Part shown: in pieces, positions 3,289-56,855 of the stretch
Layout of the letters: each line of letters begins with the position of its first letter
Numbering within the stretch: the stretch's first letter is position 1
Origin: Octopus vulgaris
Taxonomy: Eukaryota
Assembly: GCA_951406725.2 (NCBI GenBank)
Contig: OX597822.1
Span: 18,476,001 to 18,540,000, forward strand
Reading direction: 5' to 3'
Length of the DNA: 64,000 bases
Program-made: the position numbers and the translations under genes
Notes under the pieces: model-generated
Seen by the model: the letters and a program-made list of their open reading frames with translations, nothing else
Told to the model about the DNA's origin: nothing
The model's database searches: none

Positions 3289-3325
3289 TGTATCGACCGG
3301 TTTCGCAATCGCTATTCATGATACA
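3289..3325 (-). ncRNA. Minimal type-I hammerhead ribozyme, A3-U8 core variant
   Basis: Reverse complement reads TGTATC-ATGAATA-GC GATT GC-GAA-ACCGGT-C-GATACA (helix I, core, helix II, GAA, palindromic helix III, GUC site, helix I'). Confidence 0.75.
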
Positions 3326-3600
3326 ATGTTTAATTTATATGAAAATATATTTTTTCTTAAGAAGAAAATGGGTCCATGTTGTTTATAATGAGATTCACAA
3401 GTGAATGATTTTACAAGTTGACAAGTAAAGGGAGGTAATTGTTTATTATTGTTATTGTTGTGTGTAGGGGAGATAACTGTTTAGGTTTTGGGTGGGGAAA
3501 AAATATGAGTACAGAAAGGAGACAGGTTTTAAAAAAAGGGGGCCTTGTTTAGTAGGGGATTTATGTACAGTGATGTAATATGTAAAAATATAAAAATTGG

Positions 3601-3708
3601 TTATGTGTGCTTATTCAGACGCGTTTTGTATTTTTCAATGAAAAATGTTTCTTTATTTAAACGTTCTAGTTGAGAGATTGTGTCTTTGCACTGGTAGAAA
3701 GGGAAGAC
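3601..3708 (-). pseudogene. C-terminal tail of a PLE GIY-YIG endonuclease
   Basis: Minus frame reads VFPFYQCKDTISQLERLNKETFFIEKYKTRLNKHT*, matching the R..E..FI.....LN end of GIY-YIG domains. Confidence 0.65.
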
Positions 3709-3782
3709 TGTGAATCTCATTATAAACAACATGGACCCATTTTCTTCTTAAGAAAAAATATATTTTCATATAAATTAAACAT

Positions 3783-3819
3783 TGTATCATGAATAGCGAT
3801 TGCGAAACCGGTCGATACA
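3783..3819 (+). ncRNA. Minimal type-I hammerhead ribozyme, A3-U8 core variant (inverted copy)
   Basis: tgtatc ATGAATA gc gatt gc GAA accggt C gataca, identical to the 3289-3325 copy. Confidence 0.75.
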
Positions 3820-5905
3820 TTAAAGATTATACTATAACCATGTAAGTGTGCGTAATTTCTGTTTTTAATTTTCTTATATACATTACAATCCACAACGTGG
3901 GGACAACCAAAATTCCTCTTTTCTGTTACTACTACTATATATATAATAATATTAGGGAGTATATCCAAACTTACAGGGAAAATTATCTCTAATTTAATTT
4001 AAATTTATATATATATATATATAATCGACTGTGCATACTCAGTGTATGTTTTGCTTCTGTGCTGGATGCTGTGGTTTAGAATGGTCGGAATGACTCCCTC
4101 AAAGTATTGTTTGTCAAAACACCTGAAAGTCTTAGACAAGTGAAACAACTCACCCCTAATCCCATTTAGGAGTGATAGATACTGATATTTTGCCAATTGT
4201 GTGGCTTGTCAACCTCACACCTGAATTCAACAGGCTGCAAACTAAATCATCAGTCTGTGACTCTGTTTACCATTCATGTAAAAACCATTTGTTGATATTC
4301 CACAGAAATGCATAAAAATAAATTCAATTAATGCTTGACTGTCATTGAAGCTGAGGGTTTGTTTTGTGGCTTCAATTTCAGTCCCCAACAATGTTCATCT
4401 GATCCCATCATCATTTAAGGCCCACTTACCAATGCTTGCATGTTCAGGCAGATTTTCCACGACCGGCTGCCCTTCCTGTCACTAGCTCTCACCTGTTTCA
4501 AAGTAGGGTCCTACTTTTCCCTTGCACAGAAATGCTTATCAGAGAAGACTGGAAGTGAACGACCTTAATAGTATGAGGATAATGCTCATTTACAACTGTT
4601 TCATAATGTCTGGAGAAAGGTACACACACACACACCTACCTACATGCATGCATACACACACACATACATACATGCAAGGAAGCAAGCATATGATGGGCTT
4701 CTTTTAGTTTCCATTTATTGAATCTATCCACAAGGCTTTGATCAGCCCGGGGCTGCAGTAGAAGATACTTGCCTAAGGTGCCTTGCTGTGGGAGTGAACC
4801 GAAGGCCATAGGGTTGGGAAGCAACCTTCTTAATTAATCACAGTTATACCATTAATAACTGATGCAACGCTTGGTTTTGTGAGTAAATACTGAAGTGAGA
4901 GTCTGGATAAGCTAAGGTTTTCAGTGAAGGAAATTAATGAGCTAATTTGCATATTACAAATTCAATCTGTAAGTGGAACAGTAAAAATGTGCAAGACTTT
5001 TCTTAAGTTCAAAATATGACATTGTTTCTGTTATCGACATTCCAACGATGAAGCTTTGTATCTTTGTTAGAACCCAGCACCTTTCTCAGAGAAAAGATTT
5101 CAAATTATTAGAAAACGAAGAGAACACACACACACATATAATGGTTTCTGTTTTGTATTAAATGTTAGAATACAAATAGTTATAAGCAAATAGGTTGAGT
5201 AATAATATGAAATAAATGCATTGGCATACAACCAAAAATGCATGTACACTCACACACAATGAACCAATGAGAAGTCTCTGTGTGTTGCTAACCCTACTGT
5301 ATGTGCGTGTGTGGGAGGTGAGAGAGAGTGGTAGGGGTCAGTTGGTAAGAGGTTGAAATGCTGGACCACTGGCAAACAACACAAGGCATAAATTCAAATC
5401 TTAACACTGATCGTACTTCTCAACAAGACACAAAGCAACATAACAATATACATCAGAATCCTTCACTATCACTGGATGAGCCAATTGTAAGCATTTGGAT
5501 GGTGTATATTAACCAACAATTGAAAATCCTACATGAAATTGCATTTATATATTGCATGTAGCCCTTTATTCTCCTGTAATTCTCTCATAGCAAGTGAAGC
5601 ATTTCGAGTACCTTACCTCTCTATGAATCTAAACTAAAATTTTTTCTCTACATTTCTTTTGTTGTCTTTAAAACATCTCCCTCTTATGATATTGTGTTGT
5701 TTTCCCACCAGATTCTCCTTCCAGATTCATCATCTTATTTTCGCAGAACTATTACAATGGTGTAAACATATTAGTTATTTGAGGGCTGCACTTTGAATGG
5801 AAACTCTTTGAGGCTTTAGTATCCATTCTGCTATTGAAAACACCTTCTGCCATTTCTCTTTATTACTTACTTCTCTTCTGATCCTGATCCATGCAGCCAG
5901 TGTGC

Positions 5906-5936
<31 letters not shown>

Positions 5937-7768
5937 TAGAGAGAGAGATGTAAATATATACATGTGTTTGTGTGTGTATGTAAACAAAGGAATATATATA
6001 TAAAAATATACCTATGTATTGCACATCTTAGTTAATGATTATACATAGCAGTTCTTCACACTTTCTGTAAATTTTGGTTCCCTTCACCTCATATATTATC
6101 TTAATGAATTGAGAGTTTTTTTTTGTTTGTTTTTTTTTGTTTTCTTGCTAAACACATTCAGAAGATTCACTTTGCCTCTTTTTGCCTTGTGTTGCATCAA
6201 CCTCTAATATCACCATTTATTACATTCCAACATTTCATGCAATCTTTTCTTTATCCAACACTCTTTAAAATATTCTTCATTCTGGATTTAGAAGGAGGTT
6301 TACATCTGAATATGTGCAAGAACCATAGAATGGTCATAAGCACTTGTTGAGCAAGGACTGCAACATGGGTTCAATTCCTAGTTGAATTATTACTTTTCAT
6401 GTACACTTCACACCTCTTGTTTCCAGCTTTGGTAAATATCTTGTAGAGGAATTGGTGCCATGTAACTGACTTGCCTTCATAACATTCTTCAGGAAGACAA
6501 TATCTTTAGCAGTAATTCAATAAAATATTAAGATTTATTGAAGTTTTAAGTTCCTAATTCTGAACATAAAATTTACCAAACATTTGCTGGAATTTAGTTG
6601 TTCCCAAATAAATTAATGTTTTGATTATGGATTGGCAGCCCGTCCTTCAGCTGCCAACTTTTGGTTTCTCTGCTCTCTCTACATTCACTATGCATAAAGC
6701 ACCCCCACCTCCACCTATTCTATGTTGGTGCCTTGTCAGAACCCCCACCACCCAACCTCACTTCCTGCAGCATTCCCTCTGCAGATGATTGATGAGCAAG
6801 ACTACTTCTGTAGAACTGGTGCTTTGAAGAATGCACTCAATATGCACTCTAAAGTGGTTGATAAAAGATGATCAGAAAAAGCATGGGACTGCGATGTCCA
6901 TTTTTTTCTTCAAAGACTATTCAATCTTACCAGAACTGGTGCCATAGCAAAAGACATCCAATACATTCTGTAAAGTGGTTTGGTGACAGGAAGAGCATGT
7001 AGCCATAGAAACCAAGCCAAATGACTTGCACAAGCACCAGTCTATGAGAATGGTAACTGTAAATATGAAATTATTTGGAATGTGATAACCCCTCCAAGTC
7101 ATACCAGTATGGAAAGCAGATGTTAAATGATTGTGATGATGATGATGAGAATGACAACATGGTGGCAGTGATGGCAGCAGCAGCAGAGATAGAGTTTAAG
7201 ACAAAATGTCTTGCAATATTTTGTTCTTGTCAATTCCTTTCTGAGTTCAAACACCACTAAGATCAATTTTGTCTTTCATCCTTCTGGGCTAGATATAAAA
7301 CACACTACCAGTAATGTGCTAGGGTTGATCTCATTATGGTCTTGTGTGCTGATGTTATAAATCAATCAGATAAATGTTTAAGGAGATGAATAAGTAATGA
7401 TGATATGTGAACCTTATAAAATCTATTTCCATCCCTTTCCATTTCTGACTCAAGATGATCAATAATGTCAATGCCGTGAGCTCCTATTTGGAGTTTTAGC
7501 TACAATCACAAGGAAGTCTTCATTACCATTGATATTACTTTTAGCTCTGTTATTGTCTATGTTGTTTATTCTCTTTTATAGTTGTTAGTGTCATTTTAAA
7601 AATTAAAAATATTGATTGGTTTTTGTCAGGAATGTGCATTTGGGTTCAATTATAATTTTTTTCTGTCATTTTCATTTCTCGTTTTTTTTTTTTATTTGAA
7701 ATTTAAAATTAATAAAACTGATTAATTTCTTTTTTAGTTTTGTTTTTAACAAACTAAAATCGGTGTGG

Positions 7769-8029
7769 TGTGGGATGACGTCAGCAGCTGGGGAGCTGAC
7801 CGGAACTTGGGCTTACCGGAAGGGGCAGGAGTGACGCGCATGCAGGCAGGGCAGGATTCGGCCTTTTCGATCGAGGTCGCTGAGGGAGTAAGACGCGTGA
7901 GCACGTTGTTAAGGTAGGGGAGAAGCAGCTGCTATTTCTAGTGTTCGGGTCGGGATGTGTCGAAGGATCCATTACCACTGAAAGGTCTCCATCTGAGACC
8001 TTTATTTCGAATCTCTCGCATACACCACT
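7769..8029 (+). mobile_element. Solo LTR related to the LTRs of the element at 30077-34114
   Basis: Starts TGTGGGATGACGTCAGCAGCTGGGGAGCTGACCGGAAC and ends ...TTTATTTCGAATCTCTCGCATACACCACT. Flanked by TGTGG on both sides (7764-7768 and 8030-8034). Confidence 0.9.
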
Positions 8030-18014: not shown

Positions 18015-19643
18015 CAGTTGCGGCCAAAATGTTCAGAACGGCATTGTTTTCGTCAGAAAAGTAAGTATAAGTTTTTATCAAAGTTGTTTTATATTCTATA
18101 ATTTTCACAGACAATAAATACAATATTAATTGTTATTGTCTGAGATTTTGGTGTAATTTGAGAGGATAATACAAAAGTTATGGATGATTTAGTGATTTAC
18201 TGCAAAACCCATGGTGGCCAAAAGGATCAGAACGGTTGAAAAAATAACAAAATAATCAAAAATGACAGAGAATACTGGAATTATTTAATATTTAGTGTGA
18301 AGCCCATTAGCTTCAATCACACTCTGACATCTTTGACTGCATGAGGAAATTAAATTTTCAATTTCTTGCTGGGTGATCTTATTCCATTCTTCCTGAAGGG
18401 CATTCCATAATTGCTCAGTTGTTTTAGGATTTCTGGCTTTCGAACGTTCTCCTAGAATATTCCATACATTTTCAATAGGATTGAGATCTGGGCTTTGAGC
18501 AGGCTAATCCATAACAATAACCTTTTCATCCTTGAGGAAGTTCATGACCACCTTAGCCTTGTGACATGGGGCATTGTCCTGCATGAATATGGGTTGTCGC
18601 TTAGTTGAATTTCTCAGCACATGCAAGACATGATCTTTTACAAGTTGTTTATAAACTCCTGCATTTACCTTTCCATGTAATCGCACCAAAGGGCCCACAC
18701 CATCTCCAGATATCATTCCCCAAACCATGACACTTCCTCCATCGAATTTAACACTAGTCTTAAGGCATTTAGGCGACAATTTTTCACCTACTTTTCTACA
18801 AACGTACCTTTTCCCATCTGAGCCAAATAACATAAACTTAGATTCATCACTGAAATGCACCGTTTGCCATTTTTCTTGAAACCACAACACATGCTCGGTT
18901 GCAAAGGTAAGACGACACTTTTTATTCTTGGAGCTGATCAGTGGCTTCACTGCAGGTGCTCTTGCTTGTAGGTCATGTTCAACTAAATGACGAGACACAG
19001 TTTTTCAAGATAAAGTTTTCTTCAATACAATGCTTATTTTCTGAGAAACAGCAGCAGCAGTTTTAAATCTGTCCTTTTTAACCAACTTTACTATAGCACG
19101 ATCTTCTCTCTTGGTCGTTTTTCTTGGCCTACCTGCAAACTTTCTTGCTTCACACGAACCACAATTATTGTAGACCTTAAGAATACCGTGTACAACACTT
19201 TTTGACTTGTTAACAATCTTTGCAAAAGATCCAATACTTAAATTACCCTTCCTTTGAAGCTTAATAATCTGCTGACGAATTGGTTACGGAGTAAGTGGCA
19301 TTATATTAACAAAGTACACTGCAAATATTCTTACTAATGTTTAGTAAACGAACCGTCAGGTAAACAAATTCAAAACATTAGAGTTCGCCGGTTAAATATA
19401 CTAAAACACGGAGTAAAAGCAACTGTTCTGATCATTTTGGCTGCCATGGGTTTTGCAGTAAATCACTAAATCATCCATAACTTTTGTATTATCCTCTCAA
19501 ATTACACCAAAATCTCAGGCAATAACAAATAGTATCGTATTTATTGTCTGTGAAAATTATAGAATATAAAACAACTTTGATAAAAAATTATATCTACTTT
19601 TCTGACGAAAGCAATGCCGTTCTGAACATTTTGGCCGCCACTG
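18015..19643 (-). mobile_element. Tc1/mariner DNA transposon (DD34E, IR/DR-type long TIRs), 1629 bp
   Basis: TA|CAGTTGCGGCCAAAATGTTCAGAAC...GTTCTGAACATTTTGGCCGCCACTG|TA. The ~225-bp TIRs each carry two GGCCAAAA.G.TCAGAAC direct repeats. Confidence 0.95.
18285..19301 (-). pseudogene. Tc1 transposase, full-length frame with three in-frame stops
   Basis: GRPRKT, FSDESKF, GGSVMVWG, FMQDNAPCH...SPDLNPIE (D-34-E spacing), ending GLHTKY*. Confidence 0.93.
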
Positions 19644-24119: not shown

Positions 24120-24154
24120 GTTTAACGTTTCGAGCGGAGCTCTTCGTCGGAAAC
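24120..24154 (-). ncRNA. Minimal type-I hammerhead ribozyme (C3-G8, U4->C)
   Basis: Reverse complement GTTT-CCGACGA-A-GAGC TCC GCTC-GAA-ACGT-T-AAAC. Confidence 0.7.
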
Positions 24155-26087: not shown

Positions 26088-26476
26088 GGTGCCGAGGGGG
26101 AAGAAGGGAGGGTGCTAAGGACCAGGAGGTCGCGTAGATTCCGGGCTCGTTTGAAGGAGGACAGGGGTGGGTTGGGGAAAATGGGGGTGGGTCGTAGAAT
26201 CGAGCTGGAGACGACGGAAGGCACGAAGTATCTTCCGACGAAGGGATAGAGTAGAGGGGTGGAAAAGGAGGGGAAAGGGGGTGCGGTTGGGGGTGGGTGA
26301 GTGGAAGGAGAAAGGGCGGTGGTGCGGTCGATGCGGCGAGTGCGGGCGAGGGCGTTCAAGACCAGGGTAGGTGGGTATCCTCGAAGCCTGAACAGGCGGG
26401 CCAGGTATTGAGACTGGGTCTCGAAATCCTGGTCGCGGCTGCACAAGCGTTGGAGATATATATATATATATATATA

Positions 26477-28670
26477 GCTAGAAATAGACTCCGACACATC
26501 TTAGATCAATACAACAAGTTCACTAAAAAACATAGTGAGGAGGGGTCCCACCAACTCAGCTCATCTGTTGACAAAGGCCTACAAAAACTAAAACAGCGAA
26601 TTAGGAACAAAGAATTAGTGTACCTCCTTGGCAGACTATCAGTAGATAGCCCACAGAACTATGTCCAGACCATGCAACAGCATATCAGTAGCATGAGAGA
26701 AGTTACACCACAGGAACATGAAAGAGTAGAAAAACTCCTCAATGCACACATGGGAATGTGGTGCAACATACTCCAACCTACAAAAAGGACGGCACACAAT
26801 TTCCAGGCATCCAACAATGAGTTTCCTACACTATACGGGTTATGCAAAGACCACAAACCCTACATAAACCCTGTCGCTGGGCCCCCAACCAGACCAGTTT
26901 GCAGAGCAAACATCTCCAGCAACTATAGACTGTTCTATTTCCTCTCACAAGTATTGCGACCTCTCATAGAGATGTCTCCGGATGTCTGTATGAGTACGGA
27001 AGATCTCCTCAGTAAAATAAGTACTTGCAACCACACCAACGACCTCACAGGTTGTATAGTGGGTAGTATGGATGTAATTTCACTCTACCCACCTATAGAC
27101 ATAGATTTTGCTGTGGAGAAATGCATTCAAGCAATCTGTGAGAGTGAAGTGGAATTCCGTAAGGTCAACACCAGGGAACTGGGCCTCCTCCTCAGACTAT
27201 GCTATGACAATAACTATTTAGATGACCATGACCTTAGTAAATTCTGCCCCACTTGCTCACAGAGAGGTAGACCACCCACCATCACTTCAGCGGTGAAGAA
27301 AAGCACCACAGAGCACTGGAGTGGCTGGACTGAACCCACCCCAAATCCTGAGAACAACAATCAGGTGAGGGAAATGACTGCATATGCAATAAGGGCCAGT
27401 GTAAAAAACCACCTTGAAAAACCACATGGTAAAGTTTAATAAAAAAACTATACATGCAGGTTCAAGGTGCAGCCATTGGTGTCGGTGTAGCTGGAGATGT
27501 GGCTGGCCTCTTCATGACATGGTGGGAAAGAAAATTTAAACAAATGTTAGCAGAACAGTCCACAACTCTTCTACTCTACAGTAGATATGTAGATGACATT
27601 AATATAATAGTTAGAACCAACTCTAGTGACGATAATGTAGAGACTGAGAAGAACGTAATGGAGAGCATCCAGCAAATAGCTAACTCCATTCACCAAAGTA
27701 TCAAGAAAACTATAGATTACCCCACTAAGAACCCTAACAATAGACTCCCTGTACTTAATACTGAACTTTGGTTAGAGACTGTGAACAATAGCGTGCAGCT
27801 CCTCCACTCTTATTACATGAAACCTGTAACTTCAAAATATGTTGTTCACAAGAACTCAGCTTTGTCACACAACAGGAAAATTAACATACTAATAGCAGAC
27901 CTATTAGAATAATGAACAATGTGTCCCCACTATACGAACCCTGTGAAATGAAGAAACATATACAGAACTTCATACACCGCATGCAGTTCTCTGGATATGA
28001 TCAGAAAGATAGGGTTTGTGTATACAGGGGGGGGGCTAGAAACAAATTAGATAACATTATACGTAATGATACCAGTGGTACCTGCCATAGATATAGAAAC
28101 AAAGAATGGAATAGAATACAAAGAGCTTGTGACAAAGCAAACAGGGCGAACATGTGGTATAAAACCAACAAATATCAAGTAGTGATGTTTGTAGAGGCCA
28201 CAGCCCTTGGAGAACTAGCCCGTAGATTTAGAAAAGCTCTGAAGGAGACCAAACTCAACATTAAAATTGCTGAAAAGCCAGGGAACTCCGTCAGATCACA
28301 ACTATGTAGGAGGTACCCGTTTAAGAATACCATATTCACCAATGATAACTGCATGGTATGTAGAATTAGCCCTGGTATTAACTGTAGAACTCGAAATGTA
28401 GTTTACAGCATAAGATGCATAGAAGGTGCTTGTAAGGACATGAACATGATGTACATAGGGGAGACGTCTAGGAGCATTGCGGAATGGATAAATGAACATC
28501 TAAGACAATATGACGACAGAAAACAGTCCTCCATACTCTACCAACATGCCAAAGACCACCATGGAGGTAATCTTATCCAAGCACCCAAAAGACCCAACAC
28601 TCAGACAAATACGGGAGTACGTCCTTATAAATGAAATTTCCCCAATATTAAATAGGAAATATACACAGTA
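26477..28670 (+). pseudogene. PLE reverse transcriptase + Zn-linker + GIY-YIG endonuclease (frameshifted)
   Basis: LYGLCKDHK...GPPTRPVC, GSMDVISLYP, QVQGAAIG, RYVDDI, C..C...C linker, NVVYSIRC...YIGETSRSI...EHL, ending ...LINEISPILNRK. Confidence 0.92.
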
Positions 28671-29338
28671 AATACCATACCTCCATACCCACAGTTTACA
28701 CAGGTAGAGTAGAATAGTTAGTGGACTGTCAGGTAGATAAATGTATGTATGTGGGTGTGAGTGTGTGTGTATACCTTTTTTTTAATCATTATTATTTTTG
28801 GGTTTTTTTGCTTTTGTCATATTTTTATATTTTTTATTTATTTTTTTATATTATTTATTTATTTATTTTTTATTTCTGTATGTAAGCATTTAGATATGTA
28901 AATAAACAGATCAACATACAGACGGATAGGTACATAGGTTACAAGAACAGACACATATTGAGACACGGAACCACACATATAAAGATGCACATACATACAT
29001 ACAAACATGGTACATAGTTACTTAACACACACACACACACAGATATGCACACACAAGGAGACAGAGGTGCATACACATACAAACACATGCTCACACACAC
29101 ACACATAGAAAATACACAAACACGGACAGGCAAGCACATAAATATGCAGGATACGTACATATAGATGCACACACATACATATGCATACACACACATATAT
29201 ACATACACATGCAAACACACACATACATACGTACATGCATGCTTGTATAGGCACACACGCATACTGACCCATTGACCCACACACATGCGCACAAACAAAC
29301 AAAAGGGAATGCAGTGTAAATAACGGACAAAGTCAAGA

Positions 29339-29375
29339 CTATTGAAAAGGTTGCAGGACGCAACAAAAATTTTAG
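29339..29375 (+). ncRNA. Hammerhead-like motif, U3-A8 core variant (G12->A in this copy)
   Basis: CTA-TTGAAAA-G-GTTGC AGGAC GCAAC-AAA-AATT-T-TAG. Helix I is only 3 bp. Confidence 0.55.
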
Positions 29376-29535
29376 AAAATAAAAATAAGAAATAAGTGGA
29401 AATTTTACCGGTGAGTGTGTTAAATAATAAGGTACTAAAAGAGAATGACTCTCCCCAGACACAACAGAATATGCTTCAACACACGAAATCATATAAAGAA
29501 TCTTGCAAACCAAATCCCAAAACGAAATATATATA

Positions 29536-29770
29536 TTTTACGGAGATGTACTTGCATAGCAAGTGACCTGATCTGAAATCGTGTGCTGGAACGAAAACAA
29601 TTGCAGCGTGGAAGGTGTTTATAAGCCATTTAAGAAACACACAGAAACCGTTAGATTCACTTCAACTCTTAAATTTAATTTGTCAAAATATTTCCATCGC
29701 TTTGAGACCGCGACTTATTGACTGACAAAGCTTCGTGCTGCATCTCAGAAAGTAACAGTTAGTTCATGAT
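29536..29770 (-). mobile_element. PLE pseudo-LTR of the same family as 56363-56938
   Basis: Aligns with 56363-56570 (ggagatgtac...gcagcgtggaaggtgtttataagccatttaagaaacac...gtgctgcatc). Confidence 0.8.
29679..29729 (-). ncRNA. Degenerate hammerhead (G3-C8 family)
   Basis: Reverse complement TTTGTCA-GTCAATA-A-GTCGC GGTCTCAAA GCGAT-GGA-AATATT-T-TGACAAA. Helices are intact but core positions 5, 8 and 13 are mutated. Confidence 0.55.
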
Positions 29771-30076
29771 ATATATGTACGTACGTATGTATGTGTGTGT
29801 GTGTGTGTATGATGTATGTATGTATGTATGTATGTATGTATGTATGTATGTATGATGTGTGCATGTATGTATGTATGTGTGTACATGTATGTGCGCATGC
29901 ATGTGTGCATGCCTATACGCATGTATGTATGTACCTATGTACTTACGTATGTATTTGAGTATTTAGGAGAGTGAGTAGACGTGTCTGTGTGTGTGTACAT
30001 GTGAACATATGTTTATGTACTGATATGTGTCAGTTGAAGTTGTATACATGACTGTTACTTTGTTGAAGGTTGTATA

Positions 30077-30352
30077 TGGTGTGTGCGAGAGATTCGAAAT
30101 AAAGGCACCTACCTTCTCTTCGCTCCAATGGAGACCCTTCAGCGGTAACGGATCCTTCAACACAGCCCGACCCGAACGCTAGAGATAGCAGCTGCTTCAC
30201 CCAATCTTAACAACGTGATCACCCGTCTTAACCTCTCGACGACCTGGCTCGAAAAGGCAGAATGCCCCGCTCGCTGTGCGCGCATCACGGCTGCCCCCTT
30301 CTGGTCAGCCCCAAGTTCCGGTCAGCTCCCCAGCTGCTGACGTCATCCCACA
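30077..30352 (-). repeat. 3' LTR
   Basis: About 90% identical by eye to 33840-34114. Confidence 0.9.
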
Positions 30353-30383
30353 TGCCACCCTGATCTTAAAGATCACAATCTCT

Positions 30384-33103
30384 CTACTCCATGTTGTAGT
30401 CTACCATCCAACCGGGAGGGCGCCTTGTGCGTCGAGATCTTCTCAAGCTGGGCACCTCGTTCTCCCCCTCTCCACAATCGTCGTCTGTCGAAGCGATAAT
30501 CCTGCGAAGGTCCAAGACGTGTCGCGGCATTCCATCCACGGAGACGTTGTTTCTGGAATTGACCGCCGTCACCGTTCCTCTGCTCCATTGAGACGTACAG
30601 CGCGCCTTTGGTGGCTTAACCCAGACTTCCTCCCCTATTTTCATGCAAACAGGTCCCTTCTCTTCCTCGTGGCCCTCCGGCGCTTTGCTCGGGTGCCTCC
30701 ATTCATATTTAAATACAGCTCTCTGCGGCACAGATTCCTCAGCTTGTCCGGATCGGGGAGACAAGTTGTACCAAAAAACTGCTTCAAGTGGCGAAATGTG
30801 CCCTCTTTCCGCTATAGCCTTGACTGTCCGATGGTGCCTCACTATGATCCCGTTACCGCTCGGCCTATACGCTACTCTGAACAAGTGACGCACCTTCCAC
30901 CGATCAAGCATAACCCTCAATGCTTCCGAACGAAACGCCACCCCATTGTCCATCAGCAGTTCTTCCACGGAACCTCTCTCTAAAGATATCCCGTTCAAGA
31001 TCTGCGCGATCTCGTCAGCAGTGCCCGTTCTCAACTCCCTTCAAATGGCCAGCCGGCCCGGCCCGCAGTCGACCATGGAGAGATACATTCCCTGACGGTA
31101 GTGTGTCACATCCACAGCTAGCCTTTTCCAGTTGTGCTCCACCGAAAGGCTTCCCTGTTCATGCCCACACGGAGCAGGGTTGATGGACTGACACCTGTCG
31201 CAGCTCCCGACCACTTTCCGGATGCTTCCCCTAGTGACGTCAGCATCACTTTTCTTCGCCAGATACAGGGTCCTGTCCACACCCAGGTGATGCATAGCAT
31301 GCAGTCTCTTCAGTTCAGAGTCATCCAACCGACACGCTGCAGCTATCCCTTTCCGGGCCTCCTCCGGTTCTTCCAACCATGCTCTTTTCACCCTGGTCAG
31401 TGCGTCCGCCCTGTTTTTCTCCGAAGGCACTAAAACGACATTCAGCTTCAGTCCGAACTCGGCGATCAATTCACCTAGAACTCCTAGACGGCACTTCACT
31501 AACATCTCTGTGACACCTTTCGTCCGCACTCTCCTTTCACCAGTGATCACCGATCCTACCCAGCCAAGCACAGTGGCCGAATCCGTCCGGATTTCAATTG
31601 TGCGCAGCCCCCATTTCAGGGCCAAGTTCACTCCTTTCAGCACCGCGTCTAATTCGGTGACATTGATGTGGTTGAAGTCATCTGCTTTCCGAAGCCAGGC
31701 CGCGTCCTCCACCGCAGCGCCTTCGATTGCCAACACAACCTCTATCGCTATACTGCTAGCATCACACCAGATGGTCCCGCATTCCGTCTTGGGCACGTAC
31801 CAGTTCCCTCTGACCGGGTCTTCCGCTCTCGTCCTCTCTAGGATTTCCTGCATCATGGCCACCGTCCCTTCTCCCACTTTGTCACCCCAACTCTCCTCCT
31901 CCGCTCGTCTCTTGGTGTAACTGCACGCCGTGCGCAGCCATCCAGCGATCGGGTAGTGACCAACCAACTTCCCACACACTGAGAACAGCTCTCTCCTGCT
32001 GACGCTGGAACTCAGCTCTGGGATTTCATTCCCTCTCCAGAACACCAATTCACCCGATCTATCTCTTCGCAGCTTCAGCCCCAGCGCGGATCCTCCTTCC
32101 ATCGACTCCGGTGGCTTCGCAGTCAGTCCGAACTTCTTCAGATGTCTTACTACCTCGTTGGCTGGCACTACAGTTTCATCCACCAAAATGTAGTCAGTGT
32201 AGGAGCTGGTGACCTTTCTAATCTTGCCGTCTTTCCCTAGGACGGACTTAAGCACTGCCACCATGATCTTCGGAGCGGAATTCAGCCCGAAACCCAGCCT
32301 GGTTAAACAGTACGTCCGGCCTTTGTACCGCACCAGCTGATACCGCCACAGTTTGTCGCTCATATGGAGCTGCAAGTATGCCGATTTCAAGTCGACAATC
32401 GTCGCCACCTCACTCGACTGTCTCCACGCACGTAACGTCTTGCCACAAACGTCTGTCACCTCACCTCCCATGTGACACGATATATGCTGGTTTAGCTTCC
32501 TGAAGTCCAGCACCAGTCTGACTTTTCCCTTCGTAGGCTGCACCACCGCCATCAGGGGTAGCACTCCGCCCACTACCTCCTCCTTCCAAGGGACAAGGAC
32601 CGCTGACCATCGAACGCCGCCTGAAAGTCTTTGTCCTCGATGGTGTAAGCGGCGCAGTCCCTCGCGGGGCTCTGCTCTCTCTGGCGATCCTGACTCACAG
32701 TGCACGTTGCCCCCACGCTTCCGAACGTGATCTCATTTCCCACAACACTGACGCCACCGAGGCGGTTGATGGCGTCCATCCCCATCACCCCATCAACCCC
32801 ATCTATCATGCGTTCAGCCACAATTACCTGCAGCCTTAGCGTCGTGCCGTGCACCACTATCTCTACCTTGCTGCTGCCTCTGCAACGGATTTCGCTGCCG
32901 TCGACAATCCGGACGCTACTTGCCCCGTTCCATTTCTTTGTCACCCTTGAATTCACAAGGGTGGTCGTACAGCCCGTATCCACGAGGGCCTTAAACGTCT
33001 TCCCCTCGGCCTCCACGTCAATTAATGGCAGCGTCTCCAATAGCGCCTCTACTCGTTTGCGGGGAAAGTTTGAGAGGCAGCAACTGCCCCGCGGTCGTTT
33101 CCC
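30384..33103 (-). pseudogene. pol (protease, RT, RNase H, integrase) with a frameshift/deletion near 32600 and a stop at 31041
   Basis: ALVDTGC, VRLVLDFRKLN, DLKSAYLQ, RLGFGLNSAP, YTDYILV (degenerate YxDD), WCDASS, H..HLG...C..CQ, AVDVTH, LMDNG. Confidence 0.9.
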
Positions 33104-33810
33104 TGGTCACAATCACAGGCGATGTGCCCTGTCTGCCTGCATCGATAGCAAACGGGCTCCGGTTGCATACAGTCCCGCGCCATGTGCGACCCCTGACATT
33201 TAAAACACTGACCTGAGAACGGCCGCTGTCGTTGCATGGTAGGCTTCTGTACGTCTTTCTCCGGTCGTCGTCCATCTTTACGCACCTCCGTCACCACCAT
33301 TGCTATCGCCTTCCGCCCAGAGTGTCGCGTCAACACGCAGGCTTGAGTCACAAGTTCGCTCAGCGCCATCTTTTTAATCCCGGGCAATCGTTGTAGGTGA
33401 ATCCGTACATCGTCGGGGAACCCATTTACAAACGCCAGCCGCGCTGCTCTCTCCAGCCCTTCTCCTGTAAACCCAGCCAGCATCGCTAACCTTCTAACTT
33501 CTGCCGCGTACTCGTCCACCTGTCCTCCCGTCCATCTGATCGTACCCAGCTTAGCAAAAGCTGTGTATTCACACTCTGTGTAGGCATCCCGCAGACGTTG
33601 CTCTATTTTTTCCTCGCTCAGGCGTTCCTCCTCCTCCATCTCAAGATATAGCGTCAACCCACTCCCTTCTAAATACAGCGCCATAAGACTTGCCACATCG
33701 CTTATACCTTGCAGTCTTGCCACCAGCCTGATTTTACGAATCCAGGCCACTACATCGCCTTCACCATTAAAGGGTCTGATGATGTCGCTGGCGATCCTGA
33801 TTTTCGCTGC
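33049..33810 (-). pseudogene. gag with two CCHC zinc knuckles
   Basis: CFKCQGSHMARDC and CYRCRQTGHIACDC in ORF 33049..33963(-). The upstream part of that ORF is LTR sequence. Confidence 0.88.
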
Positions 33811-33839
33811 CGACTTATATGGAGCGCCGAAATAGCTTG

Positions 33840-34114
33840 TGGTGTAAGCGAGAGATTCGAAATAAAGGCACCTACCTTCTCTTCGCTTTGATGGAGGCCC
33901 TTCAGCGGTAACGGATCCTTCGACACAGCCCGACCTGAACGCTAGAGATAGCAGCTGCTTCACCCAACCTTAACAACGTGAATCACCCGTCTTAACCCCT
34001 CGACGACCTGACTTGAAAGGCAGAAATCCCTGCTCACTGCGCGTGCGTCTCGGCTGCCCCTTCCGGTCAGCCCCAACTTCCGATCAGCTCCCCAGCTGCT
34101 GATGTCATCCCTCA
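33840..34114 (-). repeat. 5' LTR
   Basis: Direct repeat of 30077-30352. Confidence 0.9.
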
Positions 34115-34211
34115 GTATACACACACATATACATATATATAGACACACACACACATATATATGTGTGTGCGTTTGTCCCTGTCACCACCGTCTAATGGTG
34201 ATTGGATACAA

Positions 34212-34441
34212 GGCGGCAGCTGGCAGAAACGTTAGCAGGCCAGGCGAAATGCGTAGCCGTATTTCGTCTGCCATTATGTTCTGAGTTCAAATTCCGCCAA
34301 GGTCGACTTTGCCTTTCATCCTTTCGGGGTCGATAAATTAAGTACCAGTTACACACTGGGGTCGATATAATCGACTTAATCCGTATGTCTGTCCTTGTTT
34401 GTCCTCTCTGTGTTTAGCCCCTTGTGGGCAGTAAAGAAATA
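34212..34441 (+). mobile_element. tRNA-derived SINE (family 2), full length, with a 15-bp TSD
   Basis: GGTGATTGGATACAA at 34197-34211 and 34442-34456, plus a B-box-like GAGTTCAAATTCC. Confidence 0.92.
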
Positions 34442-34624
34442 GGTGATTGGATACAACGCCTTAGATACATATATGCACATATAACCATATACATATATAC
34501 AAGTACACACAATCATATAGACACTTACACATACTCACAAATATACGTATAATCTTAAAGTATACACACATATACGCTTATCCATCTCTCTCTCTATATA
34601 TATATATATTTATATATATATGAC

Positions 34625-35960
34625 ACTATTTTCAAGGACAACGTTGAGTGTGGGTTTGTATTCTTGTATACAGACAGCTTCAGTGACCTGTCTCAGCATT
34701 ACATCCGTGGGATGTGTGGATAAGATGTTTAATTTAATCCCTTGTGGCAGTCTACAGCATGCTGATAGAAGATGGAGTTTGGTTTCTTTGCAATGTAGTT
34801 GTCCAGGTGTTCTTTGAACCTATCATTGATACTCCTTAGAAGTCTCACCTATGTATGACTCTGGACTAGTCACGCAAGCTCTTTCTCGGCACTTAATTTG
34901 GTATACAGTGTTCTTGGTTTTACAGTTCACATGTGGGTTTGTAGAACATACTGCACAATTATTTTGACACATGATTTTATCAAATGGATATGATCTACAT
35001 AATACAGATTTGATAGTCCTACCTGTCTTTTCTACAACTTTGATCTTAAGGCCAGTTGTACGCAGGATTTTCTTAGATGCCTTACTTAATTCGTTCTTAG
35101 GTGTGGCGACAACAAATATTACACTGTGAAATTTTTTGTTATCATACCAAGTATTGGTTTTATTTCTTTTGTTGGTGTCCCTCTCTAACCTATTCCAGAG
35201 CTTGTTGCGGTATAGGGGGCATATACCGTTTTCGTCATCTCTTAGAATGCGTTCGAATCTTGTTTTTGCTCCTTTGTACACTCTGATTCTATCGTATTGT
35301 GTGTATCCGGGACGTTGCATTCGGAATATGAAGTGCTGGATGTGTTGTTGTTCTTGTGGTTGGCATAGTGGGGATACATTCCTCAGTACTCTAAGTCTGC
35401 CACCAGGATGTTGATCTTGGTAGTACTCACCATCGCTGAGTCACTACGGTTTACAATAGTGTGAGTGGAGTATACAGGGTTTAACAGTCCCATTAGCCAT
35501 AGTATTTTCTATCTACAGCTCAGTATCTAGGACAGGTAATCTATTACTGGGGTGTAGTCTACGGTAACTTTTATACTGCTATGGATAGAGTCAGCTATGT
35601 GTTGTATAGCTGTCATCACCTGTTCTTCATTTAGTAGAGAGTCTATATCTGTGTCTGTATTACTATTACATTTCACGACAAGGTTAATGTCGTCAACGTC
35701 AACATATCAAGAGTACATAGCTAAGTGGATGTTACGGGTCACTAGGCACTGTTTAAACTGTCTGTCCCACCATGAAGAGGTTAGTAACATCACCGGCGAT
35801 CCCTACTCCAATAGCACCGCCTTTCACCTGTTTATACAGTTTGTTGTTAAACTTAAAAATATGGGTTTTAAGCGTAGTTCTAATAGCATGTGCAACAGTA
35901 GTTTTGATGTCGTGTGCCATACCAGCGTTCACAGTTGGTATCTTTACCTCAGCATACAAA
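34625..35960 (-). pseudogene. Penelope-like element B RT (C-half) + GIY-YIG, frameshifted, related to element A
   Basis: YKQVKGGAIGVGIAGDV, DDINL, CAVC...C linker, NTVYQIKC...YIGETSK, RFKEHL...EAVCIQEYKPTLN. Confidence 0.9.
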
Positions 35961-36404
35961 AAGAAGTCTGTCTTGTGTGTGTGTGTGTGTGTGTGTGTGC
36001 CCTCTTGTCTTGACATGGTTTGATGGTTGTTATTGAGCATCGTAGTCTTACAAGTTGCGTCGTTTATTTCCAGTCTTTCTGGAAATAAAGTCTGGCAAAG
36101 GGAATATATTACCTTACTTGGAAACAGGAAAGACCTCTGGCCAGAGAAAGACTCCTTTGACAAACTCTGACTGACCCATGTGAGCGTGGAAATGTACATG
36201 TTGATGGTGATGATGATGATTATATATTTATGCCTTTAGGTATGTATGTGTGTGTGTGTGTGTGTGTGAGAGTGTTACCAATAAAATAATTATGAGACTG
36301 AAATAAATTCTCTTGTTAATATACTTTTGTAAGCTCTATGAAAGAGTTAGCATGGCAGATGTCCAGTGACTGAAACCATAAAAGAATAGATACGTATATA
36401 TATA

Positions 36405-37165: not shown

Positions 37166-37546
37166 GCAATATTAAATCTCTGAGCAAGAATTAAACAGTA
37201 GCAGCACGGAATTGTGAAGTATATTTGCCACCTAAATGTAGCGGCCCCATAGGGGACAATGTTACTGTTGTTTATAGTCCCAGGAGGACACCTTCTCCAG
37301 CTTGCTAATGACACACTGTGTGTGTCTTATGAGTATTTGCTGGTGACTATCATACACTGAAGATGGGTTACTACCCAGAAACCCGGGTCTGCATGTATCA
37401 CTTAAGGCTAGAGATGGGAATGATGATTTCCCTTCACAAATACTCATAAGACACAGACAGTGTGTCGTTAGCAAGCTGAAGGAGATGTCCTCCTGGGGCT
37501 ATAAACAATAGTAACATTGTTTCCACATTTAGGTGGCAAATATACT
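37166..37546 (+). mobile_element. Non-coding fold-back element with a central HHR, in (TA)n (PLE pseudo-LTR-type)
   Basis: Inverted arms 37218-37339 and 37437-37546, an extra tail 37166-37217, and (TA)n on both sides. Confidence 0.8.
37351..37395 (+). ncRNA. Type-I hammerhead ribozyme, canonical core
   Basis: CATACA-CTGAAGA-TGGGT TACT ACCCA-GAA-ACCCGGGT-C-TGCATG. GUC site, with one mismatch in helix I. Confidence 0.88.
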
Positions 37547-39215: not shown

Positions 39216-39570
39216 AATCTGTTGGATTCTGTGTAACCACTCAACCCCGTATCAGATGGAAAGCAGAAACAAAATGAATGTGGTGGTGGAGGTGATGATG
39301 GCAACAGAAGTGGTGGTGGTGGTGGTGAGAATGATAGTGAAGGTGTTGGTGTTGGTGAATATTTGCAGCAGTTTAAAAATCATTGCACTCAAATTTTGCT
39401 TGCCGAAAGAGGTAACTAAAAAGGGTGGACAAGAGAAAAGGCTCCCAGCCATAAAGTAGTACTTCCTCAAAAAGGCAGCCTTGATAAGTTTGATTGTGAT
39501 GGGAATGCAAGACTACTTCTCCACTCCTCTTTGGTTGTGAAAATGGCTTAAAAGCATTTTGATGTAACAA

Positions 39571-39611
39571 CTCCAGACATGTTTCAGTTTTATTAAATCT
39601 CCTCAGTAAAG
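39571..39611 (-). ncRNA. Old hammerhead motif (canonical core, eroded helices)
   Basis: Reverse complement CTTTA-CTGAGGA-GATTTAATAAAACT-GAA-ACATGT-C-TGGAG. Confidence 0.55.
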
Positions 39612-39623
39612 CATAGTTTACAA

Positions 39624-45311: not shown

Positions 45312-47232
45312 CAGTAGTTTTATTTTTATAGCGTGCTTTCACTTCACTACCGAGCGCAGCTCTGTGTGCCTTGGGTATGTGCTGTGATTTGTTGTGATGC
45401 TCTGATGGTTATTGTATGGAAAGTGTTCTGCGTAGGATGTGTGCAGTGCCTAGTAGTGCAATTTTCTGTATGTTATATGTGTTTGTAAGTCCTGGTGTTT
45501 TTGTTATGTATTTGTCTGAATATTTTTTTATCATGCCTAATGCACCTACTATGATAGGAATTGTTTCTGTTTTCAGGTTCCACATTCTAGTTACCTCTAT
45601 TTCCAGGTCTTTGTATTTTGAGAGTTTCTCCATTTCTTTTAGAGACACGTTGTCATCTGCCGGTATTGATACATCAATTAGAAAGCATTTTTTTCTTCAT
45701 GATCTCTGACAACTATATCTGGTCTGTTGGCCTTAATTTCTCTATCTGTGTGTATCGGCATATCCCAGAGTATGGTTGCTTTCTCGTTTTCTGTGACCTT
45801 TTCTGGTGTGTGCCTATACCATCTTTTTTCTGTTGTTATTCCATAATGTTGGCATAGCTTCCAATGTATGTAGGTTCCAACTCTGTCATGTCTGTGAATA
45901 TATTCCTTCTTAGCCAGGACTGGGCAGCTAGAGATAATATGATTTATTGTTTCTTGTCCATCTCCACATATTCTGCAGTTACTTGTAATATTTCTTTTCA
46001 TTACATGTTTTTGGTAATTTCTGGTGGGGAGGCTTTGGTCTTGTGCTGCAATTAAAAATCCCTCTGTCTCTGCTTTGAGTCCTGAGCTTCTCAACCATTG
46101 CTGGGATTTTTCTTTGTCTATTTCTTTTGCGTTTAGTTTAGTGCAGTATTTACCATGAAGGGGCTTTTCTTGCCATCGTTTTATCATGGCTCGTTGCTGT
46201 TCTATTTTTAGTTTGGATTTCATTTGTTTTATAGCTTCTTCTTCTTCTTCTTCTTTGTGTTTATTAGGTGGTATGATTTCTTGTTTGTATTTGTCAGCTC
46301 CCTTAAATACTGAGAACAGTTTTTTGTTTTGCTCGTGTTTTGCTGCTATCTGGATCAGTTTTCCTTCCTTCTGAAGTCGGTATTTTTGCAGTCCTATGGT
46401 GGTTATTTTATAGTAGTTTTCCAGCTGTATAAGGCCTCTACCACCTTCTATACGTTGTATATATAGTCTTTCTATGTCAGATTTTGGGTGATGCATCCTA
46501 GATCCTGTCAGTATTTTTCTTGTTTTCCTATCTATTTTGGACAGTTCATTTCGTGTCCAGTTAAGGATATTGTAGCTGTAACTTATAACTGGGACAGCTA
46601 AAGTGTTGATACCTATTATCTTGTTTTTAGCATTGAGCTCTGTTTTTAGTATTGATCTAACTCGTCTATAATATTCTTTTTTTATTTTCTCTTTCATTTG
46701 TGTGTGTTGTGTCTTATCTAGTTCATGGATTCCTAAGTATTTGTAAGTTTGGCTTTGGTCTAATTCTTTTATTTCATTGGTTTTATCTAGTGTGATGTTG
46801 TTGCTCTTAACTAGTTTTCCTCTTTTCATGGTTACTTTGGCGCATTTTTCTAATCCAAATTTCATATCTATTTCTTTGGTAAATCCATGAACTGTCTTTA
46901 ATAGTGTTTCCAGCTGTTTATCATTTGCAGCGTATAGTTTTAGGTCATCCATATATAAAAGGTGGCTGATCGTTTTGCCGTAACATTTATATCCGCATCC
47001 AGTTCTATTTAGCATATCAGATAGAGGTGACAGTGCCAAGCAGAAAAGGAGTGGAGAGAGCGTGTCTCCCTGGAATATTCCTCTTCTAATGGGGATGTCT
47101 TTGGTTTTCATGAGTCCCTCTTTTGTTTGGAGGTGTAGGACTGTTTGCCATTTATTCATAGAGTGCTCTATGAATTTTATGATTGTTGGTGCTACTTTGT
47201 TAATGGCTAGTGTTTCGAGGATTCATGTGTGG
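45312..47232 (-). mobile_element. Dong/R4-clade LINE, relatively young and 5'-truncated, inserted in (TAA)n
   Basis: Flanked by (TTA)n at 45293-45311 and 47233-47308, with a long ORF 45678..47159. Confidence 0.93.
45409..47230 (-). pseudogene. RT + CCHC + restriction-like endonuclease, one frameshift near 45690
   Basis: RRGIFQGDTLSPLLF, HLLYMDDLK, CRICG...HIISSC, RHDRV, RPDIV...IDVSIP, KLSKYKDL, PIIVGALG. Confidence 0.93.
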
Positions 47233-55112: not shown

Positions 55113-55138
55113 TATATATATAAATATATATATATATA

Positions 55139-55602
55139 ACTTTATAAAAATAGGGTAAAGTAAAATAATTTACTTTACCACACACCGAGCTTTTTAGAAA
55201 TAGCAGCCAAAAATTTGGCTATTTCTTCTATTGCAAGAAAAAGTCTCCCAGACAATGTATACTCAGAAATAACTCACATAGGTATAAGGGAAAAACAACA
55301 AAAGATCACATCCATACGAGATACCCGAGGACAAGCCTGTTTCTGGATTAGTTGATTAAACGCCAACATTTCCTTCATCAGCTCAGAGATTTCTTCTGAT
55401 TTAGATTTGAAAGTACTAAGAATCAAACATACCCGTCCGATATATGAAACACCGGACAAACCAAAGCTCGGTGTGTGGTAAAGTAAATTATTTTACTTTA
55501 CCCTATTTTTATAAAGTAATATTTCAAATATACCGTAAATGGTCATTTTACATACCGAACACTGCTCGGTCGAATTGATTAATTCTACCCTTTTTTATTG
55601 AC
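55139..55602 (-). mobile_element. Non-coding fold-back element with a central HHR, in (TA)n (PLE pseudo-LTR-type)
   Basis: Perfect 55-bp inverted arms 55139-55193 and 55463-55517, a tail 55518-55602, and (TA)n on both sides. Confidence 0.8.
55325..55386 (-). ncRNA. Type-I hammerhead ribozyme, canonical core, long helix II
   Basis: Reverse complement CTGAG-CTGATGA-AGGAAATGTTGGCGTTTAATCAACTAATCCA-GAA-ACAGGCTTGT-C-CTCGG. Confidence 0.82.
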
Positions 55603-55742
55603 TATATATATATATATATACCTACATACACACATAAACACATATATATCAACATCACCATCATTTTCATGCTCACTTTTGTATGCAACAAACATACACA
55701 CACATATGTGCACACATACACAAATATATATTTATTTCAAAG

Positions 55743-55927
55743 CTGTGCATTTCTTCAGGGAACAAAGTGATTCATCTCTTTGTAACCTGAAAGTTGGCAC
55801 TACCAATAAACTCTGAAATGCTGCGCAGGGAATCATCAGCTTTGACTAGATAAATAAATAAATAAACTCTGTTACATATATTGAGTACTTTTCCTACCAT
55901 CTGTTTATAAAAACATATCTCAGTTTA
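55743..55927 (+). repeat. 185-bp segment duplicated at 56574-56758
   Basis: Direct repeat with about 4 mismatches by eye. Confidence 0.93.
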
Positions 55928-56316
55928 TTGTGTATATGCGTGTGTGTGTGTGTGTGTGCGCACATGCTTAGCTGAAAGTGCACATATCCTTATTTAGATC
56001 TAAGAATTACACTGCAGAATTTCAGATCAGAAATTTTCAGTAAATGCAGATATGTAGAGAAGTTCCTTTTGGCAAATTGGAAAACACCACCCTCTCCAAA
56101 TAGAGCAGCTGTATTACAGACTTTAGATTCCTTCCATTGTTTCTACACCATTTAGCCTTACTATATCGTCAAAGGGGACATAACTCTATTTTTTTTCCAG
56201 TTTTTTTTCAGTTTTTTTTTAATCTCTTCCACTTTTTGACCCCCACCTTCATCTATTTTTGTCTTGGGATTTCTCCTGTTCTGTTGTCCTGATTTGTAAC
56301 TTGTATACGCCATATG

Positions 56317-56366
<50 letters not shown>

Positions 56367-56503
56367 GGAGATGTACTCGCATAGCAAGTAATTTGATCTG
56401 AGATTGTGTGCTGAAACGAAAACAATTGCAGCGTGGAAGGTGTTTATAAGCCATTTAAGAAACACACAAAAGCCGTTCGATTCACTTCAACATTTAAGTT
56501 TAA

Positions 56504-56553
56504 TTTGTCAAAATATTTTCGTCGCTAAAATCCGCGACCTGTTCACTGACAAA
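56504..56553 (-). ncRNA. Minimal hammerhead ribozyme, G3-C8 core variant
   Basis: Reverse complement of 56806-56855. Confidence 0.75.
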
Positions 56554-56805
56554 AATCCGTGCTGCATCACGACCTGTGCATTTCTTCAGGGAACAAAGTG
56601 ATTCATCTCTTTGTAACCTGAAAGTTGGCACTACCAATAAACTCTGAAAAGCTGTGCAGGGAATCATCAGCTTTCACTAGATAAATAAATAAATAAACTC
56701 TGTTACATATATTGAGTACTTTTCCTACCATCTGTTTATACAAACATATCTCAGTTTAAATCCGCGACCTGTTCACTGACAAAAATCCGTGCTGCAGCAC
56801 AGATT

Positions 56806-56855
56806 TTTGTCAGTGAACAGGTCGCGGATTTTAGCGACGAAAATATTTTGACAAA
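56806..56855 (+). ncRNA. Minimal hammerhead ribozyme, G3-C8 core variant
   Basis: TTTGTCA-GTGAACA-G-GTCGC GGATTTTA GCGAC-GAA-AATATT-T-TGACAAA. Confidence 0.75.

Follow-up and report, generated by a model that had tools for sequence, protein, structure and literature searches.

The window analysed here (the whole stretch of Octopus vulgaris DNA, 64 kb) harbors minimal type-I hammerhead folds that lie in terminal repeats of Penelope-like retrotransposons (PLEs) in three families and presumably in four others, and the family-wide changes in their cores are likely compensatory swaps of the 3-8 pair that preserve a putative RNA self-cutting. An earlier note had described ten motifs with palindromic helix III, and all ten named cores and palindromic helices were found at their places in the window. 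The ten are not independent ribozymes but fall into seven repeat families, and damaged or non-consensus cores occur in three of the window copies. The motifs and the associated elements are as follows.

3289..3325, minus strand: A3-U8 hammerhead motif, family AU (N3 at 3319; intact core; helix III of 6 nt; predicted cut after 3295)
3604..3714, minus strand: GIY-YIG endonuclease of the AU family, C-terminal 37 codons, upstream of the 3319 motif on the same strand (tblastn)
3783..3819, plus strand: A3-U8 hammerhead motif, family AU, inverted partner of the 3319 copy (N3 at 3789; predicted cut after 3813)
24120..24154, minus strand: C3-G8 hammerhead motif with U4C (N3 at 24150; helix III of 4 nt)
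26255..28659, plus strand: broken RT and GIY-YIG frame of the U3-A8 family PLE, in at least three pieces (55-62% identity to P0002)
29339..29375, plus strand: U3-A8 hammerhead motif, family UA1 (N3 at 29342; this copy carries G12A)
29679..29729, minus strand: decayed G3-C8 family copy of an older subfamily (N3 at 29722; G5C, C8U, A13G)
30077-34114: LTR element between the G3-C8 PLE frame and the 29.7 kb motif
about 34210-34444: short interspersed repeat between the same frame and motif
34625..35965, minus strand: broken RT/GIY-YIG frame of the G3-C8 family PLE (sequence comparison)
37351..37395, plus strand: C3-G8 hammerhead motif (N3 at 37357; helix III of 8 nt; one helix I mismatch in this copy)
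39570..39612, minus strand: C3-G8 hammerhead motif of an old, diverged family (N3 at 39606; weak helix II)
55324..55387, minus strand: C3-G8 hammerhead motif (N3 at 55381; helix III of 10 nt with G-U pairs)
56504..56553, minus strand: G3-C8 hammerhead motif, young subfamily (N3 at 56546; intact core; predicted cut after 56511)
56751..56783, minus strand: partial G3-C8 copy, an eleventh (helix I 5' strand, core and half of helix II)
56806..56855, plus strand: G3-C8 hammerhead motif, inverted partner of the 56546 copy (N3 at 56813; predicted cut after 56848)

The motifs at 3319 and 3789, and likewise those at 56546 and 56813, form inverted pairs on opposite strands. With a strict descriptor in which positions 3 and 8 were left free, seven sites were detected in the window. 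Six have a Watson-Crick 3-8 pair and belong to the ten motifs; the seventh, at 15116 on the minus strand, is mismatched at 3-8 and probably a chance match. In 40 block-wise dinucleotide shuffles a mean of 0.75 sites (maximum 2) was obtained, 0.175 with a Watson-Crick pair, versus seven and six in the real sequence. Allowing C4 gained the 24150 motif, and those at 29342, 29722 and 39606, which fail even the relaxed window descriptor, were confirmed via their genome families. An Rfam covariance-model scan returned no hammerhead family among 122 matches at E ≤ 10. The full core (U4, G5, A6, A9, G12, A13, A14, A15.1-U16.1 and an N17 other than G) is present in 7/10 window copies, the exceptions being 24150 (U4C, family-wide), 29342 (G12A, in this copy) and 29722 (G5C and A13G, decay). 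The 3-8 pair is Watson-Crick in nine of the ten copies and in all seven family majorities, the 29722 copy having a G3·U8 wobble.

Helix III, of 4-10 nt, is fully self-complementary in 7/7 families, and a monomer could form 0-3 pairs in it. Helix II is weak at 39606 and helix I has 3 bp at 29342. The GC, UA1 and 24150 families clearly show both an extra nucleotide between 9 and 10.1 and a G10.1-C11.1 pair. AU has G10.1-C11.1 but lacks the additional nucleotide, and the copies at 37357 and 39606 can be read either way. GC and UA1, which are related, also show compensated pair differences in helices I and II. Lowest-energy folds of single motifs and homodimers were often not the hammerhead fold, and since this fold is not favoured for several motifs, energy folding was not counted as support. 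With regard to N17, avoidance of N3-N17 pairing fits GC (U17) and AU (C17), but two of six U3-A8 families show A17 in many copies, which makes such avoidance a tentative lead. The part of PMC3884650 covered here reports from data not shown a higher activity of G3-C8 when N17 is G than when it is C.

The A-U, G-C and U-A cores proved to be family-wide, as the earlier note had proposed, and not the decay of single copies. A3-U8 was read in 90/90 genome matches with positions 3 and 8 left free (at 90 exact matches the AU family is small and young), G3-C8 in 5,534 exact 22-base genome matches, and U3-A8 in 31 of the 34 best family rows. G3-C8 is common to two subfamilies with different loop II, and in GC contigs from four public runs, under four organism labels, no other letter reached 5% at position 3 or 8. 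Position 12 of UA1 is G in 31/34 rows and A in 3/34, the window copy at 29342 reading A. A search for CUGANGA only would, as also anticipated, miss these swapped-core families.

Motifs of the AU, UA1 and GC families lie 0.3-1.5 kb downstream of a PLE frame, and in one copy of each family GIY-YIG was matched over the Pfam cut-off. The AU endonuclease piece in the window (3604..3714) has 95% identity by tblastn to the frame at locus L201, which matches PF01541 over the cut-off; the RT was not reached in AU family frames. In UA1, copy L271 matches PF01541 over the cut-off, and the window pieces (26255..28659) gave no RT or GIY-YIG Pfam match. For UA1 and GC a Pfam match to RT is below the cut-off or absent; the RT assignment is supported by identities of 24% (with the L187 frame, which bears RVT_1) and 53% (with a protein carrying the name RT-domain). 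The 3' part of the window GC frame continues to the 29.7 kb motif across the LTR element and the short interspersed repeat, and among 24 further copies of the frame in the genome, 11 have the G-C family repeat behind them on the same strand. The motifs match PLE-type minimal type-I hammerheads with palindromic helix III, directly in these three linked families and by probable extension in the other four. Within 1.5 kb no linked PLE frame was detected for the 24150 family (0/30) or for two other C3-G8 window families (0/20 and 0/20), and the fourth had two apparently unrelated frame matches in 20 loci. Three of these four families have a fixed 3' end and a ragged 5' end, which fits truncated retro-copies. 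In the 24150 family the core is common to 30 of the 32 best rows and U4C occurs in 31 of 32; U4C is common in at least three families.

Across families, positions 3 and 8 covary. The majority pair was Watson-Crick in 20/20 families or single motifs from 892 kb (12 C-G, 6 U-A, 1 G-C and 1 A-U), after a filter that dropped 12 of 32 clusters (5 mismatched, 1 tie, 6 paired) and whose helix-length rules were set after seeing the output. Among the retained clusters, one combines two sister families, that of 37357 and another, its copies reading U-A, C·A and C-G. Families found by accident in flanks had a Watson-Crick majority in 13/13 cases, and wherever C3 is absent (eight families or motifs), position 8 holds the complementary base. 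The background of Watson-Crick 3-8 combinations is 0.258 of 14,297 bare cores, and 3/14 in shuffles. The looser catalogue descriptor gave 17 matches per shuffled run. Applied to arbitrary stretches of the genome totalling 48 kb, the loose descriptor yielded four matches: C-G twice, U·U once and, in a microsatellite, A·G once. On the endonuclease tree ((GC,UA1),(CG2,(CG1,(AU,UA2)))) at least four pair switches are needed, or three without the single-locus CG2 link. A-U and G-C were each seen in one family only, and both families were seeded by the earlier note.

A G8 form of the G-C family was found in 201 exact matches, with differing flanks; 97 of the first 100 are G3·G8 and none has C3. This corresponds to about 200 dispersed G3·G8 copies, the G3-C8 count being about 27-fold larger. 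The G8 form accounts for 5/11 ORF-linked G-C family copies, and at locus L269 two direct repeats flank an RT/endonuclease piece and are both G3·G8. Because of these varied flanks, the ORF-linked copies and both L269 repeats, it seems that the mismatched core was propagated. In a tree of 35 repeats built without position 8, no branch was starred and the two states were mixed, giving no polarity for G3·G8 (intermediate or decay), and no alignment column in the 35 copies was linked to G8 at p<0.1. Selection on the swaps, which the earlier note proposed, is not strict on this evidence and so weaker than had been put forward, given the roughly 200 dispersed G3·G8 copies.

In a double hammerhead, nucleotides 3 and 8 are supplied by the same strand, and nucleotide 8 acts through its 2'-OH, positioned by pairing with nucleotide 3. 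Any Watson-Crick pair could therefore stand in, probably with slower cutting. In a parent element flanked by direct terminal repeats, the transcript would carry one motif per repeat. Pairing between the palindromic helices III of the two motifs would complete a pair of active sites, each cutting after N17, as published PLE work suggests, and the same work raises the possibility of help from the element's own protein. The window copies would then be 5'-truncated and inverted leftovers showing the parent state, not working dimers. As truncated or inverted relics, these copies cannot form a dimer within one transcript; no direct same-transcript pair was found in the window or among the 90 exact AU matches, and no tandem array lies over any window motif at periods up to 500. 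For each family, at most three of its 20-30 loci hold a second copy on the same strand. At L268 direct G3-C8 copies lie 6.3 kb apart with no PLE frame found between, and L270-L273 hold broken frames with the 3' motif and without a direct 5' copy.

Much of this resembles published systems, several of which are cited here from parts of the papers. Metazoan PLE hammerheads act as dimers with very low activity (Cervera and de la Pena 2014, PMC4209133), and like those described here they have type-I topology, a short helix I and a palindromic helix III behind RT-GIY-YIG frames. In the sections covered, they also occur mostly as single or inverted truncated copies, with many families per genome and covariant U3-A8, the latter in about 1,300 natural Schistosoma matches. 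The 56 representatives listed there have only C3 or U3, whereas A3-U8 and G3-C8 families and several with U4C are present here. Perreault et al. 2011 (PMC3088659) reported the first natural U3-A8 covariation, palindromic helix III dimers in repeats, and U4C, a variant seen in a viroid and only weakly active in vitro; these features are shared, but A3-U8 and G3-C8 were not found in the portion of that paper covered. Dimer cleavage is likewise described for small PLE hammerheads, whose stem III is palindromic and very short (Lunse, Weinberg and Breaker 2017, as summarized in a review). The hammerhead PAc of the Anolis Poseidon PLE is also a terminal-repeat hammerhead; in the covered part of PMC11167929, an engineered C3G/G8C exchange partly restored activity and cleavage needed protein, whereas G3-C8 is natural here in a family of more than 5,500 copies. 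For the lizard PLE the same text describes in vitro insertion without need for cleavage, and no RNA ends at its cut site. Non-LTR retrozymes (bioRxiv 10.64898/2026.07.22.740005, in part) also carry type-I hammerheads related to PLE terminal repeats, but form tandem arrays, while the window motifs are dispersed. U3-A8 has been reported before, both in PLEs and in other hammerheads. For natural A3-U8 or G3-C8, no report was found in the part of the literature that was searched, and both are unusual natural variants of a known ribozyme, not a new system.

Rather unlikely, on balance, is that the fold is kept for a non-cutting job, such as binding of the PLE protein or positioning of reverse transcription, with 3-8 loosely kept for shape and the A-U, G-C and U4C cores cutting little or not at all. 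The spread of G3·G8, the existence of U4C families, insertion in vitro without cleavage (PMC11167929, in part), the very low activity of minimal PLE hammerheads (PMC4209133, in part) and the spread of Naiad PLEs without canonical hammerheads (PMC8557442) all fit this explanation. However, the catalytic nucleotides G5, A6, A9, G12, A13 and A14, along with the A15.1-U16.1 pair and an N17 other than G, persist in the family majorities, although the descriptor requires them, and the 20/20 Watson-Crick majorities and the excess of G-C over G·G also speak against it. That A3-U8 and G3-C8 are founder accidents, two broken-core masters with complementary 3 and 8 copied regardless, is very improbable. 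Each state is indeed confined to one family, copies within one family are not independent, and the AU family is small and young; yet the matching base at 8 recurs in 8/8 non-C3 cases, G3-C8 persists in two subfamilies, and two transversions landing on the pair, twice, plus the U-A switches, are unlikely at a background of 0.26. The earlier note's idea that differing 3-8 pairs limit mixed-family dimers, favoured by several families with different pairs sharing one genome and one 64-kb window, was rejected as scarcely credible because positions 3 and 8 come from one strand, so that a mixed dimer cannot mismatch them, and the seven families already differ in helix III, which where lengths match pairs fully with itself alone, and in helix I, where cross-pairing reaches at most 3 pairs (the strong AU/37357-family helix III duplex, at -7.5 kcal/mol, has the wrong length and no helix I cross-pairing); an indirect effect via N3 pairing with the partner's N17 is conceivable.

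The swapped families provide natural covariation for a tertiary pair, whose purine-pyrimidine flips are otherwise known from engineered mutants in the literature examined. Descriptors fixed on C3-G8 or U3-A8 miss whole families, with more than 5,500 copies here. Neither a new ribozyme class nor a host function is revealed. More tentatively, the core may be relaxed and protein-assisted, with all four Watson-Crick 3-8 pairs and U4C as natural working states and the G-C family in the course of a switch, transposition-competent G3·G8 standing beside the far commoner G3-C8. If true, A3-U8 and G3-C8 would here be seen in natural hammerheads for the first time, and the dependence of PLE spread on cleavage could be tested directly. 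Matched sets from nature are available for the question whether an element can spread only if its hammerhead cuts: G-C against G·G within a single family, and A-U against U-A in families that are related.

All ten hammerhead motifs of the earlier note were found with their named cores in the window (37.6% G+C, microsatellite-rich; genome 2.8 Gb, 227 contigs), each core being followed by a hairpin, GAAA, the palindrome, the nucleotide before the predicted cut (N17) and a strand pairing with the bases preceding the core. The motifs, named here by the position of nucleotide 3, represent seven families. With a descriptor that leaves positions 3 and 8 free, seven sites were detected in the window, six of them Watson-Crick, versus a mean of 0.75 sites (0.175 Watson-Crick) in 40 shuffles; an Rfam search of the window did not detect the hammerhead motifs. 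Three copies have a non-consensus core: 29342 (G12A), 24150 (U4C) and the decayed copy at 29722.

Hammerhead copies and carrier elements in the window
3319(-) and 3789(+): inverted pair, A3-U8 family
3604-3714: remnant, last 37 codons of the A3-U8 family GIY-YIG frame
26255-28659: broken Penelope-like element (PLE) frame with U3-A8 motif 29342 at its end; a family copy matches PF01541 (GIY-YIG)
29722(-): decayed G3-C8 family member, core changes G5C/C8U/A13G
30077-34114: LTR retroelement; the terminal repeats (277 bp) are 90% alike, and its minus strand carries an RT-like and an integrase-like frame
34625-35965(-): PLE frame, assigned to the G3-C8 family by the repeat behind some of its other genome copies
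56546(-) and 56813(+): inverted pair, G3-C8 family
56751-56783: partial G3-C8 family copy near that pair

A stretch of about 200 bases is present twice (55710-55930 and 56570-56760), the second copy lying between the arms of the inverted G3-C8 pair and possibly captured during insertion. Other mobile-element sequences are a Tc1-like transposase fragment (18504-19004(-)) and, at 45678-47222(-), a frame for a non-LTR RT that includes zf-RVT.

The swapped pairs are states of whole families. Genome relatives numbered 80 to 1,943 first-look candidates per motif. In best-hit rows, which favour the window's own state and come from loci that partly overlap, A3-U8 was present in 42/42 rows of its family, G3-C8 in 46/49, the U3-A8 core in 31/34 rows of the 29342 family and C4 in 31/32 rows of the 24150 family. 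A less biased pattern search for the A3-U8 family, with positions 3 and 8 free, gave 90 genome matches, all A3-U8. The exact G3-C8 22-mer matched 5,534 times, and at positions 3 and 8 of this motif no alternative letter reached 5% (contigs, four runs, four organism labels). The odd-pair families do not revert to C3-G8.

Loose-descriptor matches from the window and 892 kb of loci (270 in all) were grouped into 32 clusters. Helix-length rules kept 20 of them; these rules take no account of positions 3 and 8, but the list had already been seen when they were drawn up. A Watson-Crick majority at 3-8 was found in 20/20 kept clusters (12 C-G, 6 U-A, one G-C, one A-U), including all 13 that did not start from a motif of the earlier note. 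Among 14,297 bare cores the background rate was 0.258, and shuffled sequence gave 1.4 single matches per run, 3/14 being paired at 3-8. Since the families are related, the 20 paired clusters are not 20 independent events. An endonuclease tree (35 fragments, 142 columns, 15 rows without an assigned motif) has two deep groups (100/100), one uniting G3-C8 with the U3-A8 family of 29342, the other joining two C3-G8 families and then A3-U8 with a second U3-A8 family; it requires four switches of the 3-8 pair, or three without a C3-G8 link resting on one locus. In a sister family of motif 37357, three loci (L006, L007, L247) carry one copy each of U3-A8, C3·A8 and C3-G8, perhaps another switch in progress.

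The A3-U8 motif lies about 0.3 kb 3' of a GIY-YIG frame at four genome loci (L201, L010, L016, L022), and the motif of the second U3-A8 family comes after a frame that encodes RT plus GIY-YIG and reaches 781 codons. For the frame at 34625-35965(-), 11/24 other genome copies have the G3-C8 repeat 1.0-1.5 kb downstream on the same strand. In the window this PLE continues to the 29.7-kb motif, interrupted by a short repeat and by the LTR element, which sits inside its 3' part and to which a solo repeat at 7755-8028 is related. Within 26255-35965, the tails of the U3-A8 (+) and G3-C8 (-) family PLEs meet near 29.5 kb; the two frames share about 47% identity. In both protein groups a CX4CxxC linker precedes the endonuclease, an arrangement reported in Neptune and Nematis PLEs (PMC8557442). 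In 6/7 families the 3' end is fairly fixed and the 5' ends are ragged. Inverted partners lie within 1.5 kb at 15/30 A3-U8 and 21/30 G3-C8 loci, likewise a feature of published PLEs (PMC4209133, PMC8557442). Three of the window's families are linked to PLEs by these frames; near the motif loci of the four C3-G8 window families no PLE frame was found, so that a PLE is only their putative carrier.

The earlier note regarded the swapped pairs as compensatory and kept by selection. Family-wide states and the Watson-Crick majority in every kept cluster bear this out in part; dispersed G3·G8 copies speak against strict selection. The G8 version of the G3-C8 22-mer, with any nucleotide 3, has 201 genome matches, and the first 100 listed comprise 97 G3, two U3, one A3 and no C3. 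On a rough estimate, 201 exceeds the ~55 expected from ~1% per-letter noise at position 3. G3·G8 also occurs in 5/11 ORF-linked copies and in both repeats of one locus (L269), the copies have differing flanks and several sequence backgrounds (mostly an older subfamily), and contig C16 is enriched for them, its first 6.7 Mb holding 21 among the first 100 matches listed. A core with this mismatch, be it decay or an intermediate, thus seems to have been copied. ORF-bearing G3-C8 PLE copies cluster on that contig (L212-L234; 18/24 best non-self frame matches). At least three hammerhead families share U4C as a common state (window 24120-24154; L240, L243, L185, L065), U4 and C4 coexisting in some; it is a viroid variant with lower activity in vitro (PMC3088659). 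That the core is relaxed, with the G3-C8 family in the midst of a compensatory switch, we consider rather unlikely.

PLE dimer hammerheads, viroid U4C and engineered G3-C8 are already known, and natural U3-A8 has been published (PMC4209133; PMC3088659). In the papers that could be searched no report of natural A3-U8 or G3-C8 was found, and both are absent from the 56 representatives in the supplement of PMC4209133.

Judged from sequence, the families have the potential to fold and carry their 3-8 pairs family-wide. In hammerheads, nucleotide 8 has an essential 2'-OH, and G8C lowers the rate 100,000-fold, partly restored by C3G (PMC8495972). Hammerheads with a short palindromic helix III require a second copy (PMC4209133). 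The inverted pairs in the window cannot dimerise within one transcript because they lie on opposite strands. The A3-U8 helix II (3783-3819) is also nearly palindromic, and the lowest-energy homodimer joins copies through it, a possible alternative dimer. The suggestion that 3-8 identity limits dimers between families was not upheld; partner choice would rest instead on family-specific helices I and III. A lizard PLE hammerhead cleaves only with its own protein and is partially rescued by C3G/G8C, and insertion of that element in vitro does not need cleavage (PMC11167929). In Octopus, the two direct repeats of a parent element may form a double hammerhead that trims its RNA, and swapped 3-8 pairs would keep this trimming going, at some cost.
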